Of a DNA stretch of 64,000 bases, positions 36,001 to 48,000 are shown piece by piece. The position numbers were made by a program. The number at the start of each line of letters is the position of its first letter. Positions within the stretch are counted from its first letter, which is position 1. Origin of the DNA: Spirochaetia bacterium (lineage in GTDB: Bacteria > Spirochaetota > Spirochaetia > SZUA-6 > Bin103); assembly GCA_965203055.1 (NCBI GenBank), contig OZ241863.1, positions 1,056,001 to 1,120,000 of the forward strand. The letters run 5' to 3'.

Positions 36001-39000
36001 CGCGTCTTCATACATGAACACGAAGTCGTCGGCGGTCAGCGGGTGGCCGTCCGACCACTTGACGCCCTCGCGCAGGTAGAAGGTGACGCTCATCGCGTCT
36101 TCGGCCAGTTCGGCGCGCCGCACCAGCAGCGGCTCCAACGCGTTGGTGTCGGGGTTGGCGCGTATCACGTAGCCGCCGATCTCCGTCTCGTAGCCGAGGT
36201 CGGCCCACGGGTTGATGCTGGTGTGGAACACCGTGAGGGTGCCGCCGTAGGCGCCGATCTCGTCGCCGGCGGCGAAGTAGACCAGCGCGGGTTCCAGCGG
36301 CAGGCGCTCGTCGACCGGCGGCAGCTCGCCGGCGGCCACCATCGCGGCCAGCATCGGCGCCTCGTTGTAGCGCCCCATCGTCATGTCGGCCTCGGTCTCG
36401 GCCGCAGCGCTCTCTTCGCCCTGGCCGCCCGCGGCCACGGCTGCCAACGCCGGCAGCAGCCACAGCATACCGGCACCCATGATTGTCATTGTCCGAATTG
36501 TCATTGTCCGACCACTCCGCATCGCGGATACCCCCTGATCGCCTGAAGGCGCCTGAAGACGGGCCGCGGCCGCGTGTCTGCGCCGCCGCGGCGTCCCCTC
36601 GGATCACCTGCTTGCGATGACTATAGCGCCATGCGGGGGCGGCCGCAACTCGCTACAATAGGCAACCGTGACAGCCAACCCGCACCCCGACGCCGCCCGC
36701 CAGATGGCCGCGGCCTGCTCCGACCTGCTGGAGAGCCTGGACGGCGCGCAACGCGCGCGCGCCTGCTATCCCTACCTCGACGGCGAACGCCTGTTCTGGT
36801 ACTACCCGCCGTTGAACCGCCACGGACTGCCGCTGCTGGCCATGAGCGATGAGCAACAGCGGCTGGCGAAGCGGATCCTGGAGGCGGGGCTCTCCGAGAG
36901 CGGGTACGAGCAGGCGTGCGCGATCATCGACCACGAGCTGATCCTCGGCGAGCAGGAACGCGCCGCGGGACAGGTGCACTGGGCGCGCGACCCCGGGCGC
37001 TACTACTTCACCATCTTCGGCGACCCGCGCGGCGCCGACCCGTGGGGATGGCGCGCGGAGGGGCACCACCTGTCGCTCCACTTCAGCGTGTGGGGGCAGC
37101 GGGTAATCTCCACCACGCCGTTCTTCTTCGGCGCCAACCCGGCGGAAGTGCGCCACGGCCCCCGGCGCGGCCTGCGCATCCTGGCGCGGCGCGAAGACCT
37201 GGCCTTCGAGCTGATGGAGAGCCTCGACCGCGGCCAGCAGGCGAAGGCGATCATCTACGATCGGGCGCCGTATGACATTCTGACCTACAACAGCACCCGG
37301 GCGGTGCTGCCGCGTGAGGAGGGGCTGCCGGCGCAGCGCCTCGACGCCGCCCAGCAGGCGTTGCTCACCGCCCTGGTGGAGACCTACGTCGCGCAGGTGC
37401 GCAGCGACCTCGCCCGCCACAAGCTGGAGCATCTGCGGCGCGCCGGGATCGGGCATCTGCATCTGGCCTGGGCCGGCCCGGTGGCGCGCCGGGCCGGGGC
37501 CGGGGCAGGGCACTACTACCGCATCCACGGCGGCAACTTCCTGGTGGAGTTCGACAACTGCCAGGATCAGGCCAACCACGTGCACTCGGTGTGGCGCGAC
37601 CTGGAGAACGACTTCGCGCAGGACGTGCTGCGCGACCACCTGCTGCTGTACCACGCCCACTGACCGGCGGCGCCGGCGCCGCGCTCGGCGCCGCGCTCAG
37701 CGGCGGCCGGCCGGCGGCGGGAGGCGCTGCCGCGGATCCTGGCGGTAGAATGCCCGGAGCTGGTCGTAGACGCCGGGGAACTGGCCGTGGAGCGCGCGCG
37801 GCTGCTCGAAGAACAGCTCGCTGGTGACGGCGAAGAACTCGGCCGGGCTTTCGGCGGCGTAGAAATCGACCGCGCCGCCGCGCCCGCGGCGTTCGTCGGC
37901 GCAGAGCCGCTCGTAGGCTTGGCCAAGCTCGCGCTGCCAGGCGCCCGGATCCATGCCGCGGTGCAGGGCCGGGCGGCCGTTCATGGCGCCGTCGAGCAGG
38001 TCCAGCTTGTGCGCGGCCTCGTGAATCACCACGTTGCAGCCGTCCCCCCAGCCCGACTCCTCGACGTCGCTCCACGACAGTACGATCGGTCCCTCGTCCC
38101 ACGCCTCGCCGGCCAGTTCCTCTTCCCACTCGCGTACCACCCCGCCGGCCTCGGTCTCCTCCAGATGCGCGGTGAATTCGCGCGGCACCAGCACGACGGT
38201 GTGCCAGCCGCGATACCAGTCGAAGCCCAGCCCGAGGATCGGCAGGCAGGCCTGGGCCGCTACCACCAGCCGGCAGGCCTCCGCGTCCTCTTTCAGGCCG
38301 CGCAGCTCGAACCGCTTGCGGCGCAGGAAGCGCCCGGCCAGCGCCTGCAGGCGGGCGTCCTCCGCGGGAGTGAGCCCGGCCAGAATCGGATGCTGCTCGC
38401 GGACCCAGCGCCACTGCGCCGCGGGCACCGCCGGGCGGCGCGGGCGCAGCCGGCGCCAGGGCCAGCGCCGCGGTGGTCGGGGCGCCGTCACCGGCTGCGC
38501 CTCACCGCGCGCCGCGGCGCAGCGCGTAGCGGCGTTCGGCGTAGGCGGCGTCCTCCACCCACAGGCGGCGCGCCGCGGCCTGCATGCGGCCGCGTACCAG
38601 GCGCGCGGCGCGCCGCGCCAGCCGGAATCCGAACCGGTCGGACCAGGCCAGGGTCGCTTCGATGATGGCGCAGATTCCGGGCCGTACCGGCGTGGCGTGG
38701 GTCTCCACCACCGAGCCGGCGCCTTCGCCGTCGATGATGGTCATCACGATGGTGCGCGCGTCGGGGCAGTGGAAGCGCGCGTCCACCTCCACCCCCAGGC
38801 GCCGGGCGGCGCGGAACAGCACCCGCACCGTGATGCTGTCCGGCTGCTGCTCGATCACCTGCAGGCGGCCGAAGGAGTGGGCGTGAAAGTGGGTGCCGTG
38901 CCACGGATCGAGGCGGTTGGCGAGCACGTCTTGCGGTTCGCAGCGCGCCTCCATGCGGATCACCGCGTCGAGGAAGCTGGCGGGGCGGGCGCAGAGGTAG

Positions 39001-45000: not shown

Positions 45001-48000
45001 CGCCGCGGGCGGCCAGCAGCGCGCGCACCGCGCGCCGCAGGCGCAGGCTGGAGATCATGTAGTAGGGAGTGTCCAGGCGCCGCCGGTAGCCGGGAAAGCG
45101 CACCTCGTAGGAGCTCCAGCTCCGGGTCACGAACGGCGCCACCCGCCGCTGCATGGCCGGCGACAGATCCCCGCCGAAGAAGCACCAGGTGTGGTTGCCG
45201 CCGATCGCCCCGCGCTCCACCAGGGCGACGCGCCGCCAGGCGGGCGCCGGCCGCGGCGCCCCGACCGGCTGCAGCGCGGCCACGATGAGCGCGTTCTGCA
45301 GCCCGCCGCCGCACAGCGCCAGGTCGACCGCGGTCATGGCCGGCGCGCCGGCACGGCGCCGATCGCCTGGCGCAGGAACTGTTCCACCGCGCGGCGGTCG
45401 CGGCGCGCGCAGGAATCGGCCGCGGCCGGCGCCGGCGGGCTGACGGTCGTCGGCAACCGCGTCACTCAGCCGGCGTCAGCGATGCAGGGCATACACGCGG
45501 TAGCCGTCCTCGCGGATTCGCTCCAGGTAGAAGGAGTCGGGTGGAATCCCTCCCACCGCGTCGCGGCTCAGCGCCGCGTAGCCGTCCCCGGCGCGGTCGC
45601 CGGCCACCCAGCGATCGTAGTCGTCCGAGCGCGCGTCCTGGGTGTGGTTGAGGGCGGAGTCCATGTCCCAGCGGCGAATGATCTCCGGCGCGCGCGGCGC
45701 CACCCGCCCCCCCAGGGCTACCGCGGTGTTGCCCGATCCGTACGACAGCAGCAGCAGGCGCTCGCCGACCATCCGCTCGCCGCGCTGCTGGCAGCGCCGG
45801 TTCAGCAGCGAGGCCAGCCCGAGGAACATGGAACCGGAATAGAGGTTGCCGACGATCGCCGCGGGGGCGATCGAGGCCTCGAAGTCGCGCTGCGCCAGGT
45901 AGCGCTGCAGGCTGGCGCCGGACAGCCCCAGGTAGCGGGTTACCAGCGCGCTCATCATCTCCAGGGGGAGATCGTGGTACGGGGCGTGGAAGGCGAACAG
46001 ATCGGTCTGTTGCAGCGTCTCCGCCGGCGTCTGGCGGGTACGCCGGCAGTGATCGAGGAACGCGTCCTCGATCGTCTCCTTGTAGCAATTTACGGAAAAG
46101 GCGCCGCGCACCCGCGGGGTCGCGGCCCCGACCGGGCGAAAGAAATCATCGACGTCCCGCGAGGCGTAGCCGGCGCCGGCCAGTTCCAGTTCCACCAGAC
46201 CGCAGCCGCGCTCGGCGATCATCGCCACGGCGCCGGCGCCCTGGGTGATCTCGGCGCTGGTGCCGGCGTCGTAGCGCGCCACGTCGGTGCAGATGACCAG
46301 ACCGCGGTCGTCGCTGCCGTTGCTCAGGGAGAGCAGCGCGTTGACGCCGAGCAGCGAGTAGGTGCCGCCGGCGCAGGCGTGCTGCGTCTGGAAGGTGGCG
46401 ATCGCTTCCGGGATCGGGAATCCGGCGGCGCGCAGCATGCCGCCGACGTGGGCCGCGATCGGCTTGGCCATGTCGGTGGCCGATTCGGTGCCCACGGCGA
46501 TGTAGCGCAGGCTGGCGATGGCGCTGTGGTTCATGCGCGACAGGAGTTGCATCGCCGCTTGCGCCGCCATGGTGACCGCGTCCTCCCAGAAGTTGGGGAA
46601 GCGCACCGAGATCTGCCCGGTCTTGTGGATGGCGCGGTCCAGGATGCGCTTGATGGTGGGGTTGGAGAGCGAGTAACGCTCCAGCAGACGGCTCAACCGC
46701 ATCAGCAGCTTGGGGATGTAGACGGCCATGTCGCCGATACCAGTAGTCATGTTCGCATCCTCCAGGTGCGCCGGCTCCGCTGCGAGGTTGTCGCCGGAAG
46801 CCGCATGCCGAGCCGGGCGCAGGCCCGCCAAGGTCCGCAACCGCCCGCCTGCCGCGCCGTTGGTCAGCGCGGCGTGCGGGCGCATCCTACTAGGAAGCTC
46901 GCGCGCTGTGGAGCGATCGTCAAGTATTGGGGTATACTTGATTGGGTCATCCGGGAACTCCGTGGCAGGGTCGAAGACGGGCCGGCGCCGCCAGGGAACG
47001 AGATTAGCGGAGTTTGCGGAGACTGGGAAGGCGGCGGCCATGGGCTTGATTCGTCGGGGCAGGGCAGCGGCAAGCGGGGGAGCGGGATGAGAATCGTGCT
47101 GACCGGGGGTACCGGCCTGATCGGAACCCATCTGGTGCGGGAGCTGGGCGTCGGCGGCGCGGCGCACGAGCTGGTGGTGCTGACCCGTGATCCGGGACGG
47201 GCGCCGGCGGGGGTCCGGGCGGTCGCCTGGCAGCCGCTGCAGGGGCCGCCGCCGGCGGAGGCGCTGCGCGGCGCCGACGCCGTGATCCACCTGGCGGGGG
47301 AACCGATCGCCGCCGGGCGCTGGAACGCCGCGCGGCGGGCGCGCATCGAGGCCAGCCGCTGGACCGGCACCGCCAATCTGGTGCGCGGGCTGGCGGCGGC
47401 CGAGCCGCGGCCTGGGGTGCTGCTGGCCGGCTCCGCGGTGGGCTACTACGGCGACCGCGGCGACGAACCGCTGGCGGAGGACGCGGCGCCCGGTTCCGGC
47501 TACCTGGCGGCGGTGACCGAGCGCTGGGAACGGGAGGCGGCGGGCGCGGAGAAGCTGGGAGTCCGCGTCGTGTACCTGCGCACCGGGGTGGTGCTGGCGC
47601 GCGAAGGCGGCGCGTTGCCGCGCATGGCCGCGCCGTTCCGCGCCGGCGCCGGCGGCCGCCTGGGCAGCGGCCGCCAATGGATGCCGTGGGCGCACGTCGC
47701 CGACGTGGTCGGCCTGATCGGTCTGTCGCTCGCCGCCGACCGCCTGCGCGGTCCGCTCAACCTGGTGGCTCCCGGCGCGGCGACCAACGCCGAACTGACC
47801 CGCGCGCTGGCGCGGACGCTGCGGCGGCCGGCGTTCATGGTGGTGCCGCGGTTCGTCTTGCGGCTGCTGTTCGGGGCGATGAGCGACACCCTGCTGGCGT
47901 CGCAACGGGTCGTTCCCGCGGCGGCCGAGCAGGCCGGCTACCGGTTCTGCTACCCGCGGCTGGAGGAAGCGCTGGCCGACCTGCTGGGCTGACCGGACTG

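Follow-up and report, generated by a model that had tools for sequence, protein, structure and literature searches.

Introduction

In gene content, the locus reported here corresponds to the isorenieratene clusters of Streptomyces, crtEIBV/crtYTU. The names crtT, crtU and crtV for these positions, with isorenieratene as the product, are given in two reports (PMC8539372, PMC13505331), and a crt locus with a "methylesterase" gene has been described in M. smegmatis (PMC4694148). On a plasmid of Streptomyces anulatus, crtY, a methyltransferase gene and crtU are followed by a convergent series of DUF5914, crtB, crtI and polyprenyl synthase genes. CrtU alone reportedly converts beta-carotene in E. 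coli, a result attributed to Krugel et al. 1999.

Fossil aryl carotenoids are taken as evidence of green sulfur bacteria, and sponges contain aryl carotenoids of unknown source. The operon analyzed here belongs to an apparently non-photosynthetic, uncultured and sponge-associated spirochaete of the family Bin103, and bears on this question of origin. Our literature search found no paper tying isorenieratene or crtU to spirochaetes, in agreement with the novelty asserted by a first-pass annotation of the region. However, spirochaetes are already known as carotenoid makers and CrtU homologues beyond the classical groups have been noted in print, which narrows the taxonomic novelty that was first claimed.

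Organization of the operon

All coordinates are positions in the window, the 64,000-nt stretch of DNA that was analyzed, and G000 denotes its genome. The genes crtY, crtI, crtB, a methyltransferase–CrtU fusion and a Rieske/DUF5914 gene form a single, tightly coupled operon on the minus strand (38502–45337). All five are intact, with no internal stops, and all four junctions are 4-nt start/stop overlaps, GTGA, ATGA, GTGA and GTGA in the order from crtY to the Rieske gene: crtI starts with GTG on the crtY stop, crtB with ATG on the crtI stop, the fusion gene with GTG on the crtB stop, and the Rieske gene with GTG on the stop of the fusion gene. The product of crtY (44123–45337), a lycopene beta-cyclase of 404 aa, matches TIGR01789 at 310 bits (cut-off 215) and Pfam Lycopene_cycl with E = 1e-70, and that of crtI (42567–44126), a phytoene desaturase, matches TIGR02734 at 626 bits (cut-off 238). 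The phytoene synthase encoded by crtB (41602–42570; 322 aa) scores 223 bits against Pfam SQS_PSY and 199 bits against the CrtB equivalog models, whose cut-off of 480 it does not reach. The fusion gene (39428–41605; 725 aa) matches Ubie_methyltran at residues 44–214 and Amino_oxidase at residues 259–701, and the last gene (38502–39431; 309 aa) encodes a CrtV-like Rieske non-heme-iron oxygenase, with a Rieske domain at residues 46–119 and DUF5914 at residues 136–307 (239 bits). These gene calls and Pfam and TIGR profile matches bear out the operon, reading frames and domain positions of the first-pass annotation. Since G000 is one 4.56-Mb contig (96% complete), and the fusion gene, junction included, is spanned at ~99% identity by a 3682-nt contig from an independent run, neither the operon nor the fusion is an assembly artefact.

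Two minus-strand genes flank the operon. An M90/MtfA-like peptidase (37697–38491; Pfam Peptidase_M90) lies 10 nt downstream and is probably a mere neighbor outside the carotenoid system; its position is not conserved, a DUF3500 gene following the Rieske gene in five other genomes (G001, G002, G005, G008 and G010). An HMG-CoA synthase-like paralogue (45476–46750; Pfam HMG_CoA_synt_N and _C) lies 138 nt upstream of crtY and scores 243 bits against TIGR01835, under the cut-off of 360. It also stands upstream of the cluster in G007 (92% identity) and G001 (82%), and a second HMG-CoA synthase is encoded elsewhere in the genome, beside IPP isomerase. The paralogue possibly provides a dedicated precursor supply; we treat it as an associated gene whose operon membership is unproven.

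Proposed pathway and precursor supply

Judged from the gene content, the region is probably a functional carotenoid operon, and its end product would be an isorenieratene-type aryl carotenoid. With the steps assigned by family membership, CrtB would convert geranylgeranyl diphosphate to phytoene, CrtI would desaturate phytoene to lycopene, and CrtY would cyclize both lycopene ends to give beta-carotene, which the presence of crtY makes the likely substrate of CrtU. The short-form CrtU flavoenzyme would then desaturate the beta-rings, with a 1,2-methyl shift, to trimethylphenyl rings. Less surely, CrtV may hydroxylate the aryl ring or one methyl group, after which CrtT may methylate the activated ring. 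The gene set, the domains, the CrtU-type desaturase and the Rieske partner agree with the earlier proposal of aryl carotenoid synthesis with ring oxygenation; what CrtT and CrtV do, and which type of ring results, is inferred. A search of G000 for reaction centers of types I and II found neither, and its positive controls worked, in keeping with a non-phototrophic host; the pigment is probably a membrane antioxidant or photoprotectant.

The cluster of G000 lacks crtE, which is present in 8 of the 11 genomes of its genus, g1; a search with one crtE query found none in G000, G009 or G003. Geranylgeranyl diphosphate is therefore assumed to come from one of two polyprenyl synthases encoded elsewhere in G000. 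The loss might instead mark a cryptic or decaying operon yielding little or no pigment. The crtE gene is gone from between the HMG-CoA synthase-like gene and crtY in both G000 and its sister G009, the g1 member G006 carries a frameshift/deletion within CrtU and a TGA within crtI, and crt clusters in Streptomyces usually stay silent according to PMC7395447. However, the five genes of G000 retain their translational coupling and conserved catalytic motifs, the two further synthases are at hand, and this crtE is likewise missing from every one of the 13 genomes of g2, the sister genus, although they keep crtY, crtT, crtU and crtV. Decay thus seems quite improbable, and we return to a functional operon.

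The CrtU domain

The CrtU-type FAD desaturase domain occupies residues 250–725 of the fusion protein (39428–40858 including the stop codon, minus strand; Pfam Amino_oxidase). NCBIfam holds no curated CrtU model, and the best match there is HpnE, at 160 bits, under the cut-off of 283. CrtB likewise resembles HpnD, and the distant CrtU-like genes of other families in the order (36–41% identity) lie in clusters without crtY, beside CrtD::CruF, a glycosyltransferase and an acyltransferase. One could accordingly imagine a PDS/HpnE-type desaturase acting on squalene-derived or acyclic carotenoids without aromatizing them. We consider this very improbable: both Hpn matches fall under their cut-offs whereas crtY and crtI exceed theirs, and the domain shares 50% identity, across 442 residues, with the gene at the crtU position of the S. 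anulatus plasmid, to which it is also orthologous by position, crtT and crtV accompanying it in both clusters. JGI labels its homologues "isorenieratene synthase".

An architectural difference from phototrophs concerns a Rieske domain. The CrtU/CruE proteins of phototrophs carry it as an insertion within the desaturase, and in six of the six long-form homologues examined (Calothrix, Thiodictyon, Chromatium okenii, Prosthecochloris, Chlorobaculum and a Binatia MAG) it lies at approximately residues 290–405 of the amine-oxidase domain. The CrtU of the window and that of Streptomyces are short forms without the insertion, and a separate Rieske protein is encoded next door. Architecture is no guide to ring type, as green sulfur bacteria, whose CrtU makes phi rings according to the Chlorobaculum limnaeum row in PMC7395447, also have the long form.

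Sequence does not reveal the regiochemistry of the ring, the CruE of cyanobacteria yields mixtures of all three isomers (PMC7395447), and the lineage turns up in sequencing runs that bear the label sponge metagenome; chi-type (1,2,3,4-substituted) rings, or a phi/chi mixture, would give renieratene or renierapurpurin, the classical "sponge carotenoids". The phylogeny argues otherwise: the family CrtU falls in a short-form clade with the S. anulatus crtU-position gene, from a genus reported to make isorenieratene, and a fully supported branch parts this clade from the Calothrix and Thiodictyon long forms, although the argument is limited in that architecture does not follow ring type. We regard chi rings as unlikely and retain an isorenieratene-type product.

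CrtT and CrtV

The methyltransferase domain (residues 1–232; 40910–41605, minus strand) belongs to the UbiE/COQ5 family of SAM methyltransferases (Pfam Ubie_methyltran, 69 bits; cut-off 20) and is 45% identical to the S. anulatus methyltransferase sited between crtY and crtU, a comparison that identifies it as the orthologue of the crtT-position gene. It looks catalytically intact, the SAM motif and a YGIRN motif being invariant in 31 of 31 aligned homologues. Among solved structures its closest matches are class I enzymes of a generic kind, with full-length matches to Coq5 and CmoA only, so that it could be C- or O-methylating.

The Rieske protein shares 50% identity with the DUF5914 protein encoded at the crtV position in S. 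anulatus, which identifies the last operon gene as the orthologue of the crtV-position gene, the old "methylesterase". Its AlphaFold2 model (pLDDT 92.5) has full-length fold matches to dicamba monooxygenase, KshA, SxtT/GxtA and a guaiacol O-demethylase (oxygenase fold match with E = 1.7e-13 and TM 0.62 over ~310 columns). DUF5914 is thus predicted to adopt the fold of the catalytic domain found in Rieske non-heme-iron oxygenases, newly recognized here. Residues C85, H87, C104, H107, D175, H178, H183 and D294, which take in the Rieske ligands and a DxxHxxxxH motif, do not vary among 35 of 35 sequences, and CrtV looks catalytically intact, with its putative iron triad kept. The operon itself encodes neither a ferredoxin nor a reductase to serve the oxygenase.

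If both proteins tailor the ring, the true product would be an oxygenated and/or methylated aryl carotenoid and not plain isorenieratene. Such a role is disfavored by the unmodified isorenieratene reported from Streptomyces, which has crtV and crtT (PMC13505331), and from M. smegmatis, which has crtV (PMC4694148). The product might then be plain isorenieratene, with CrtT structural or regulatory and CrtV a redox partner of short-form CrtU, its Rieske center, and perhaps its iron site, accepting electrons from ring aromatization, the same job that the inserted Rieske domain could do in phototroph CrtU/CruE; the placement of a Rieske domain either inside the long form or adjacent to the short form fits this proposal. 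However, an electron carrier has no need of the complete oxygenase domain and invariant putative iron triad of CrtV, its Rieske domain has no pairwise similarity to the inserted one, and the SAM-binding motifs of the methyltransferase are all kept across several phyla. Moreover, CrtU works in lineages whose genomes have no DUF5914: the domain is absent from Micromonospora, Sorangium and Actinoplanes, three of the five CrtU-carrier genomes searched, and CrtV is dispensable for some CrtU carriers. The redox-partner role is unlikely in our judgment, and ring tailoring stays the preferred function.

The CrtT–CrtU fusion

The two domains are joined by a Pro/Ala/Gly/Arg-rich linker at about residues 233–249 (40859–40909, minus strand). 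In the predicted structure both domains fold confidently (mostly pLDDT 84–96 for the methyltransferase), and the linker appears disordered, with pLDDT below 50 at residues 235–247. Its length varies from ~10 to 60 residues across g1 members. Two studies contain runs labelled sponge metagenome in which nearly the same DNA is present, and a sponge-metagenome contig has an in-frame 6-nt deletion at 40880, in the linker.

The first-pass annotation held the fused gene to be universal in the family. CrtU is universal, but the fusion is confined to one genus: among the 11 g1 genomes it is intact in nine, fused but broken in one and absent from one, where the genes are separate, whereas crtT and crtU are separate neighbors in 13 of 13 g2 genomes. 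They are also separate neighbors in the other lineages checked, except for a second fusion in Actinomycetota, which is an independent event. The g1 fusion arose by loss of the overlapping stop/start (GTGA) between two coupled neighboring genes.

Distribution and origin

Our counts reproduce those given previously for CrtU, which is found in 24 of 24 Bin103 genomes at 62–100% identity and matched in 14 of 68 genomes of the other seven families of the order at 36–41%. DUF5914 occurs in 23 of 24 genomes of the family, not 20 of 23, and the single miss (G004) is a contig end. Among 401 sampled genomes of the phylum it was found in G000 itself and in none of the 400 others. This restriction and the raised GC content of the cluster (76.3% versus 68.75% for the genome) point to a foreign origin. 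The family CrtU is monophyletic (SH-aLRT 100), and its tree split mirrors the two genera. Horizontal gain by one family ancestor, followed by vertical descent, is thereby established in part.

Comparison with known clusters

The CrtU sequences most similar to that of the window, at 53–61% identity, come from Gemmatimonadota, Latescibacterota, Myxococcota, Planctomycetota and Acidobacteriota, several of them from collinear seven-gene copies of the cluster; Actinomycetota CrtU reaches 44–50% and no higher. Outside the family and Actinomycetota, a methyltransferase gene lies directly upstream of crtU in 22 of 35 loci with room for one, a 23rd (L043) overlapping crtU by 7 nt, and a Rieske/DUF5914 gene is present at 27 loci, 32 having at least 1200 nt of room downstream. 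The label "Actinobacterial-type" consequently suits the gene content but not the sequence affinity. The operon shares its gene set with the isorenieratene cluster of Streptomyces, crtEIBV/crtYTU, which comprises the same seven gene families, with the methyltransferase at the place of crtT and the Rieske/DUF5914 gene at that of crtV.

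A coupled operon predicted to make aromatic carotenoids

The window holds a real, intact and vertically inherited operon, predicted to make aromatic carotenoids, in a phylum new for such operons. Its five intact genes lie on the minus strand at 38502-45337, where the G+C content is about 75%. The crtY product (44123-45337) scores 310 bits with the curated lycopene beta-cyclase model TIGR01789 (cut-off 215), and that of crtI (42567-44126) scores 626 bits with the phytoene desaturase family model TIGR02734 (cut-off 238). The crtB gene (41602-42570) matches SQS_PSY with 223 bits and reaches 199 bits with the CrtB equivalog models, under their cut-off of 480. 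The 725-aa gene (39428-41605) encodes a UbiE/COQ5-type methyltransferase (MT) at residues 44-214 and an amine-oxidase/PDS-type flavoenzyme at residues 259-701, and the 309-aa gene (38502-39431) a protein with Rieske and DUF5914 domains. Every junction is a 4-base overlap of stop and start (GTGA, ATGA, GTGA and GTGA), and the five genes therefore form a single translationally coupled operon. No promoter-like site was found in a scan of 37400-47300, and its two terminator-like sites are at chance level. An M90 peptidase gene lies 10 nt downstream, a position that is not kept in relatives.

We considered the HpnC/D/E squalene route for these genes and rejected it: HpnD reaches 186 bits (cut-off 279) and HpnE 160 bits (cut-off 283), and instead of a hopanoid context the neighbours are crtY and crtI, both over their cut-offs. 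Mis-binning or a chimera is excluded as well, because the genome (96% complete) is one contig, the flanks are alike in relatives, and independent contigs bridge the junctions. Among the latter, a 3682-nt contig from a sponge run bridges the fusion, since it spans 38400-41263; it shows 30 differences plus a single in-frame 6-nt gap in the linker. A 6709-nt contig of the same run covers 41244-45338 and continues into the HMG-CoA synthase (HMGS)-like gene upstream of crtY; its HMGS-crtY spacer is shorter by 92 nt, and crtE is again absent.

That HMGS-like paralogue (45476-46750) is separated from crtY by a 138-nt spacer and is the divergent one of the two copies in the genome. The other sits beside a type 2 IPP isomerase gene (C1:4200850-4203191), presumably the housekeeping mevalonate locus. 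The cluster contains six of the seven families of the Streptomyces-type gene set (crtE, I, B, V, Y, T and U); crtE is absent, and a search for the crtE type of this cluster found no match anywhere in the genome. The genus member G007 carries a crtE-like polyprenyl synthase gene of 392 aa with two DDxxD motifs between HMGS and crtY (L013 2218-3396), where the window's genome and its sister G009 have the 138-nt spacer (45338-45475 in the window). Homologues are sited in the cluster in 8 of the 11 genomes of the genus, and the G007 query found no match in the window's genome, G009 or G003.

Elsewhere in the window, a gene with an HNH-endonuclease domain adjoins one for a 998-aa DUF499 protein (50873-55304), and a DUF4143/AAA_14 ATPase occurs with a YhgA-like transposase (Transposase_31) at 60935-63371; these may be defence or mobile stretches.

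The flavoenzyme is a predicted short-form CrtU

Pfam Amino_oxidase matches the flavoenzyme domain over the full model at residues 259-701, NAD_binding_8 matches it too, and the motif GGGIAG is invariant in all 37 fused homologues compared. The nearest solved relative is the plant phytoene desaturase 5mog. Judged from sequence, the domain has the FAD-binding Rossmann motif and the PDS/amine-oxidase fold expected of a short-form CrtU. With the crtU-position gene of the Streptomyces anulatus crtY-T-U cluster it shares 50% identity over 442 residues, and the two fall in one clade in two trees. The domain is accordingly best described as a predicted orthologue of the CrtU of an isorenieratene producer, with the S. 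anulatus gene, not the characterised S. griseus protein, as the reference. No CrtU model in NCBIfam gave a match, and the best match was HpnE, under its cut-off.

Phototroph-type CrtU and CruE enzymes are long forms. All six that we examined (Calothrix, Thiodictyon, Chromatium okenii, Prosthecochloris, Chlorobaculum and one Binatia MAG) have about 600-650 aa, and in each a Rieske [2Fe-2S] domain interrupts the amine-oxidase domain midway. Pfam finds no Rieske domain within the 725-aa protein, and its alignment with the Prosthecochloris CrtU falls into two blocks, of 32% and 38% identity, that flank an insertion (residues 336-416) without counterpart in the window's protein. It lacks the Rieske insertion and is not a long form. 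Nor is the Rieske domain of the neighbouring 309-aa protein a detached copy of the inserted one: BLASTP finds no similarity between them, so homology is rejected and any likeness would be one of function. Besides phototrophs, Binatia and Myxococcota MAGs contain Rieske-inserted long-form homologues, 41-53% identical to the Thiodictyon enzyme (L128-L133, L136 and L143; the insertion was confirmed in the Binatia one).

A methyltransferase fused to CrtU in one genus

The MT domain scores 69 bits with Pfam Ubie_methyltran (cut-off 20), and LDLCCGTG, D75, D99 and YGIRN are invariant in 31 of 31 MT sequences from several phyla, which points to a member of the UbiE/COQ5 methyltransferase family with an intact SAM-binding site. 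It is not a UbiE/MenG quinone C-methyltransferase orthologue, because its scores fall under the equivalog cut-offs (NF001244, 90 bits against 216; TIGR01934, 87 bits against 158). Another UbiE-like gene lies elsewhere in the genome, as a 29% match at C1:480-1193. Against solved structures the MT profile matches generic class I methyltransferases only, so that the atom methylated is not inferable from them. A predicted complex of the CrtU and MT domains, cut at the linker and each given an alignment, scored 0.00, which gives no verdict either way.

The fused gene had been annotated as universal in the family. This holds for the CrtU part, found in 24 of 24 family genomes, but not for the fusion, which within the family is confined to the genus of the window's genome. 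Within that genus, MT and CrtU form a single open frame in G000 (the window's genome), G001, G003, G005, G007, G008, G009 and G010. In G002 the fused gene is split by a contig break, with the two ends overlapping in frame, and in G006 the frame is continuous across the junction and then meets a deletion or frameshift inside the CrtU N-terminus. The crtI gene of G006 also holds a TGA (L095, G006:C3:1212500-1219500); its lesions reflect either decay of the cluster or long-read assembly error. In G004, a divergent and fragmented genome, MT and CrtU are separate. The sister genus has two adjacent MT and CrtU matches in 13 of 13 genomes, and the MT stop and CrtU start overlap as GTGA in all three genomes read. 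Because the genes are separate there, in G004 and in all 15 loci read from other phyla, the fusion is a young, genus-level event, which arose through loss of the overlapping stop and start of coupled neighbours. The linker is rich in Pro, Ala and Gly and varies from about 10 to 60 residues among genus members; in the structural model both domains fold well and the linker is disordered (pLDDT below 50 at residues 235-247).

The 120 best homologues in the database include 61 with at least 700 aa and both Pfam domain sets. Fifty-one of these are 66-98% identical, a figure that includes P0050, which should not count, and ten, from Actinopolymorpha and kin, are 46-51% identical. The CrtU parts of eight of the ten, placed in a second tree, form a clade (SH-aLRT 93) that joins unfused Streptomyces sequences in a clade of nine rows (SH-aLRT 100), far from the spirochaete clade; because of this placement, the actinomycetote fusion is a second, independent event. 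A third fusion, suggested by the 727-aa database protein P0050 from the sister genus, was rejected. Its middle is an out-of-frame reading of the 3' end of the MT gene, and since this part is read in the CrtU frame, P0050 is a frameshifted or mis-called protein and was left out of the counts. In such G+C-rich DNA, long open alternative frames can fake fusions, as they do in P0050.

The Rieske/DUF5914 protein is a predicted oxygenase

The 309-aa protein was modelled with 35 homologues at high confidence (pLDDT 92.5, pTM 0.90). Its full-length structural matches are dicamba monooxygenase (E = 1.7e-13, TM 0.62), KshA, SxtT/GxtA and guaiacol O-demethylase. Pfam Rieske scores 45 bits (cut-off 20), the CxH...CxxH ligands C85, H87, C104 and H107 are invariant in 35 of 35 sequences, and so are the DxxHxxxxH motif (D175, H178, H183) and D294. 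By analogy with dicamba monooxygenase, H178, H183 and D294 are the putative iron triad. Because of the full-length fold match and these invariant residues, DUF5914 is predicted to be the catalytic domain of a Rieske non-heme-iron oxygenase. No ferredoxin or reductase partner is encoded within the operon or in nearby genes, and a literature search for DUF5914 by name found nothing.

A Streptomyces anulatus plasmid, found by tblastn, links this protein to an old gene name. It carries a lycopene cyclase, a class I methyltransferase and a flavoenzyme in series and, convergent to them, a 'DUF5914 domain-containing protein', phytoene synthase, phytoene desaturase and polyprenyl synthase. Streptomyces genes at these positions are named crtY, crtT, crtU and crtE, crtI, crtB, crtV in an excerpt of PMC8539372. 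Because the published names fit the plasmid positions, CrtV, formerly a 'methylesterase', is identified as the Rieske/DUF5914 protein, and CrtT as the methyltransferase. The excerpts of literature that we retrieved give no function for crtT beyond 'methyltransferase', or for crtV beyond 'methylesterase'.

Both genes are frequent but not obligatory companions of crtU, as linkage counts and CrtU genomes free of DUF5914 indicate. At 38 loci outside the family and outside Actinomycetota, MT is directly upstream of crtU in 22 of the 35 with room, a 23rd case being L043, where MT overlaps crtU by 7 nt; a Rieske gene is present at 27, and 32 have at least 1200 nt of room downstream. The corresponding numbers for 40 Actinomycetota loci are 2 and 3, and DUF5914 is absent from the whole Micromonospora, Sorangium and Actinoplanes genomes, three of the five CrtU-bearing genomes searched.

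Two roles for CrtV can be weighed. It may be a redox partner of the short-form CrtU, as a Rieske domain is inserted in the long forms and absent from the short form; a pure carrier role is hard to reconcile with an oxygenase domain that is complete and conserved. We weakly favour a tailoring hydroxylase instead, although crtV carriers are reported to make plain isorenieratene.

Relatives and acquisition of the cluster

One genome per prokaryote species was scanned for relatives, and the best 80 of the 553 found were kept. Within these 80, the nearest outside the family are from Gemmatimonadota, Latescibacterota, Myxococcota (Sandaracinaceae, Polyangiaceae, Sorangium, Kofleriaceae), Holophagae/Acidobacteriota and Planctomycetota, at 53-61% identity, and the Actinomycetota CrtU relatives follow at 44-50%. 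The first-pass annotation had called the cluster actinobacterial-type; the gene set is indeed that of Streptomyces, but by these identities the nearest kin are uncultured Gram-negative lineages. Six loci (three of Gemmatimonadota, one each of Latescibacterota, Kofleriaceae and a Pseudomonadota MAG) have crtY, crtI, crtB, MT, crtU and the Rieske gene in the same order and orientation. A gene of about 1 kb between crtY and crtI is a polyprenyl synthase in the three loci examined for it, L020 (Latescibacterota), L072 (Kofleriaceae) and L017 (Planctomycetota), so that those cassettes hold all seven Streptomyces gene families.

A quick maximum-likelihood tree of CrtU (93 rows, LG+G4, SH-aLRT only, rooted on the Calothrix and Thiodictyon long forms) has a clade of 37 Actinomycetota, mostly Micromonosporaceae, and a mixed clade of 54 rows. 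The spirochaete family is one group of 12 rows in the latter (support 100), splitting by genus. The backbone of the mixed clade lacks resolution, and the donor lineage therefore cannot be named. One old acquisition followed by vertical descent fits the G+C content (76.3% in the cluster, 68.75% in the genome) and the distribution of DUF5914, which is present in 23 of 24 family genomes, the single miss being at a contig end, and absent from all 400 further genomes sampled in the phylum. A G+C gap of this size is large for a cluster common to a whole family. The cluster was reshuffled after acquisition: the sister genus (L010-L012) has crtY-MT-crtU-Rieske without crtI and crtB of the window's type, its best CrtI-family matches being about 35% identical and sited elsewhere in the genome, and the crtE-like gene is patchy in the genus of the window's genome.

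In other families of the order, a distant CrtU-like gene of about 509 aa (36-41% identity; L109, G475:C15:280000-297000, and L108, G440:C1:3659000-3676000) lies in a carotenoid cluster of another kind. Next to it are genes for a 705-aa CrtD::CruF fusion, a phytoene-synthase-like protein, HMG-CoA synthase, acyltransferases, a type 2 IPP isomerase and a B12-binding regulator like CarH, to which G440 adds a CruG-like glycosyltransferase; no crtY was seen at either locus. The cluster resembles a light-regulated route to a carotenoid glycoside ester, acyclic or monocyclic.

Habitat and significance

Type I and type II reaction-centre proteins gave no match in the window's genome, with positive controls. 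Searches for rhodopsin and Blh (BCD) gave no match either, but their controls were equally silent. In public runs, with the two best holders left out as a possible source, the share of the gene's 31-mers is 0.58-0.74 in 'sponge metagenome' runs of two studies, 0.63-0.79 in two runs of an organism coded B (study P2) and 0.41-0.48 in 'marine metagenome' runs of a third labelled study; RNA runs are absent among the listed public holders. One sponge metagenome run contains family DNA that is about 99% identical. An excerpt of PMC5649159 describes 'bin103' as a spirochaete MAG from the sponge Aplysina aerophoba, from which we infer that the placeholder family name Bin103 derives.

The known makers of aryl carotenoids named in the available portion of PMC7395447 are green and purple sulfur bacteria, cyanobacteria and actinobacteria. 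The same portion states that synthesis of isorenieratene, renieratene and renierapurpurin by sponges has not been shown, and that cyanobacterial symbionts are hypothesised as their source. In further excerpts, CrtU homologues in non-phototrophs are taken to suggest wider production (PMC9342728), isorenieratene potential is assigned by KEGG to Myxococcota and Binatota MAGs (PMC10576062, PMC8262859), uncharacterised terpene clusters are noted in sponge-associated spirochaetes (PMC11656744), and spirochaetes such as Salinispira make carotenoids (PMC4511686). We found no report tying CrtU or isorenieratene to spirochaetes or sponge symbionts, which supplements might list. With CrtU in every family genome and near-identical DNA in a sponge run, the family offers a concrete, testable alternative to a cyanobacterial source.

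Isorenieratane and related fossil carotenoids are taken to mark green sulfur bacteria and water that was sulfidic and sunlit. This interpretation loses force with every additional lineage that is non-phototrophic, marine and tolerant of oxygen and has an intact CrtU operon, a caveat already raised in general terms in excerpts of PMC9342728 and PMC7395447.

A bolder reading, which we consider rather improbable, is that the family is a non-phototrophic source of the aryl carotenoids of marine sponges and that CrtT, CrtU and CrtV form a three-enzyme module leading to an undescribed aryl carotenoid. In such a module, CrtV would take electrons from ring aromatisation or hydroxylate the new aryl ring, and the methyltransferase, fused to CrtU in this genus, would then methylate that ring. 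If true, the fusion would offer Rosetta-stone evidence of what two genes do to which no function has been assigned since they were named.

As CrtV is an oxygenase by fold and crtT and crtU have fused twice independently, these are proteins to assay together. The value of the operon lies in the questions of sponge pigments and biomarkers, in the assignment of CrtV as an oxygenase and in a pointer to the roles of CrtT and CrtV.

Comparison with known systems

At the level of single proteins, the CrtV-like protein shares with alpha3-type Rieske monooxygenases both motifs and the full-length fold (TM 0.55-0.63 over about 300 columns), whereas identity is only 14-19% and the catalytic half is still a DUF entry in Pfam. 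The long forms, CrtU in green and purple sulfur bacteria and CruE in cyanobacteria, are homologous ring-aromatising flavoenzymes of about 630-650 aa; where they have the inserted Rieske domain, the window has a Rieske oxygenase encoded by its own gene and a methyltransferase fused to CrtU. The Actinopolymorpha-type fusions, 722-823 aa long and annotated 'FAD-dependent oxidoreductase', have the same domain order as the 725-aa protein and are 46-51% identical to it over 95-98% of the query, except that two of the ten cover 62%.

At the level of gene clusters, Mycobacterium smegmatis makes isorenieratene and has a collinear crt locus ending in a 'dehydrogenase' and a 'methylesterase', according to an excerpt of PMC4694148. 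This locus (MSMEG_2343-2347), likened here by its description there, has a phytoene desaturase, a phytoene synthase, a cyclase, the 'dehydrogenase' (CrtU) and the 'methylesterase' (at the CrtV position) under one promoter; unlike in the window, no methyltransferase is listed. The crtEIBV/crtYTU cluster of Streptomyces (S. griseus; S. coelicolor SCO0185-0191) is made up of the gene families seen in the window, with MT directly upstream of crtU and a CrtU of the same short-form clade; identities to the S. anulatus plasmid are 45% for MT, 50% for CrtU and 50% for the Rieske protein. It consists of two convergent operons with crtE present and crtT and crtU separate, whereas the window, from another phylum, has one collinear operon with the two fused and no crtE in the cluster.

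Uncultured Gemmatimonadota, Latescibacterota and Myxococcota (Kofleriaceae) and a Pseudomonadota MAG carry collinear crtY-crtE-crtI-crtB-crtT-crtU-crtV cassettes, known from genes alone. In these cassettes crtT and crtU are separate, and crtE lies between crtY and crtI, whereas in the spirochaete genus it is upstream of crtY or missing. They share gene order and orientation with the window and are its closest sequences outside the family, with identities of 52-60% for CrtU, 58-66% for CrtI, 58-63% for the Rieske protein and 44-59% for MT.
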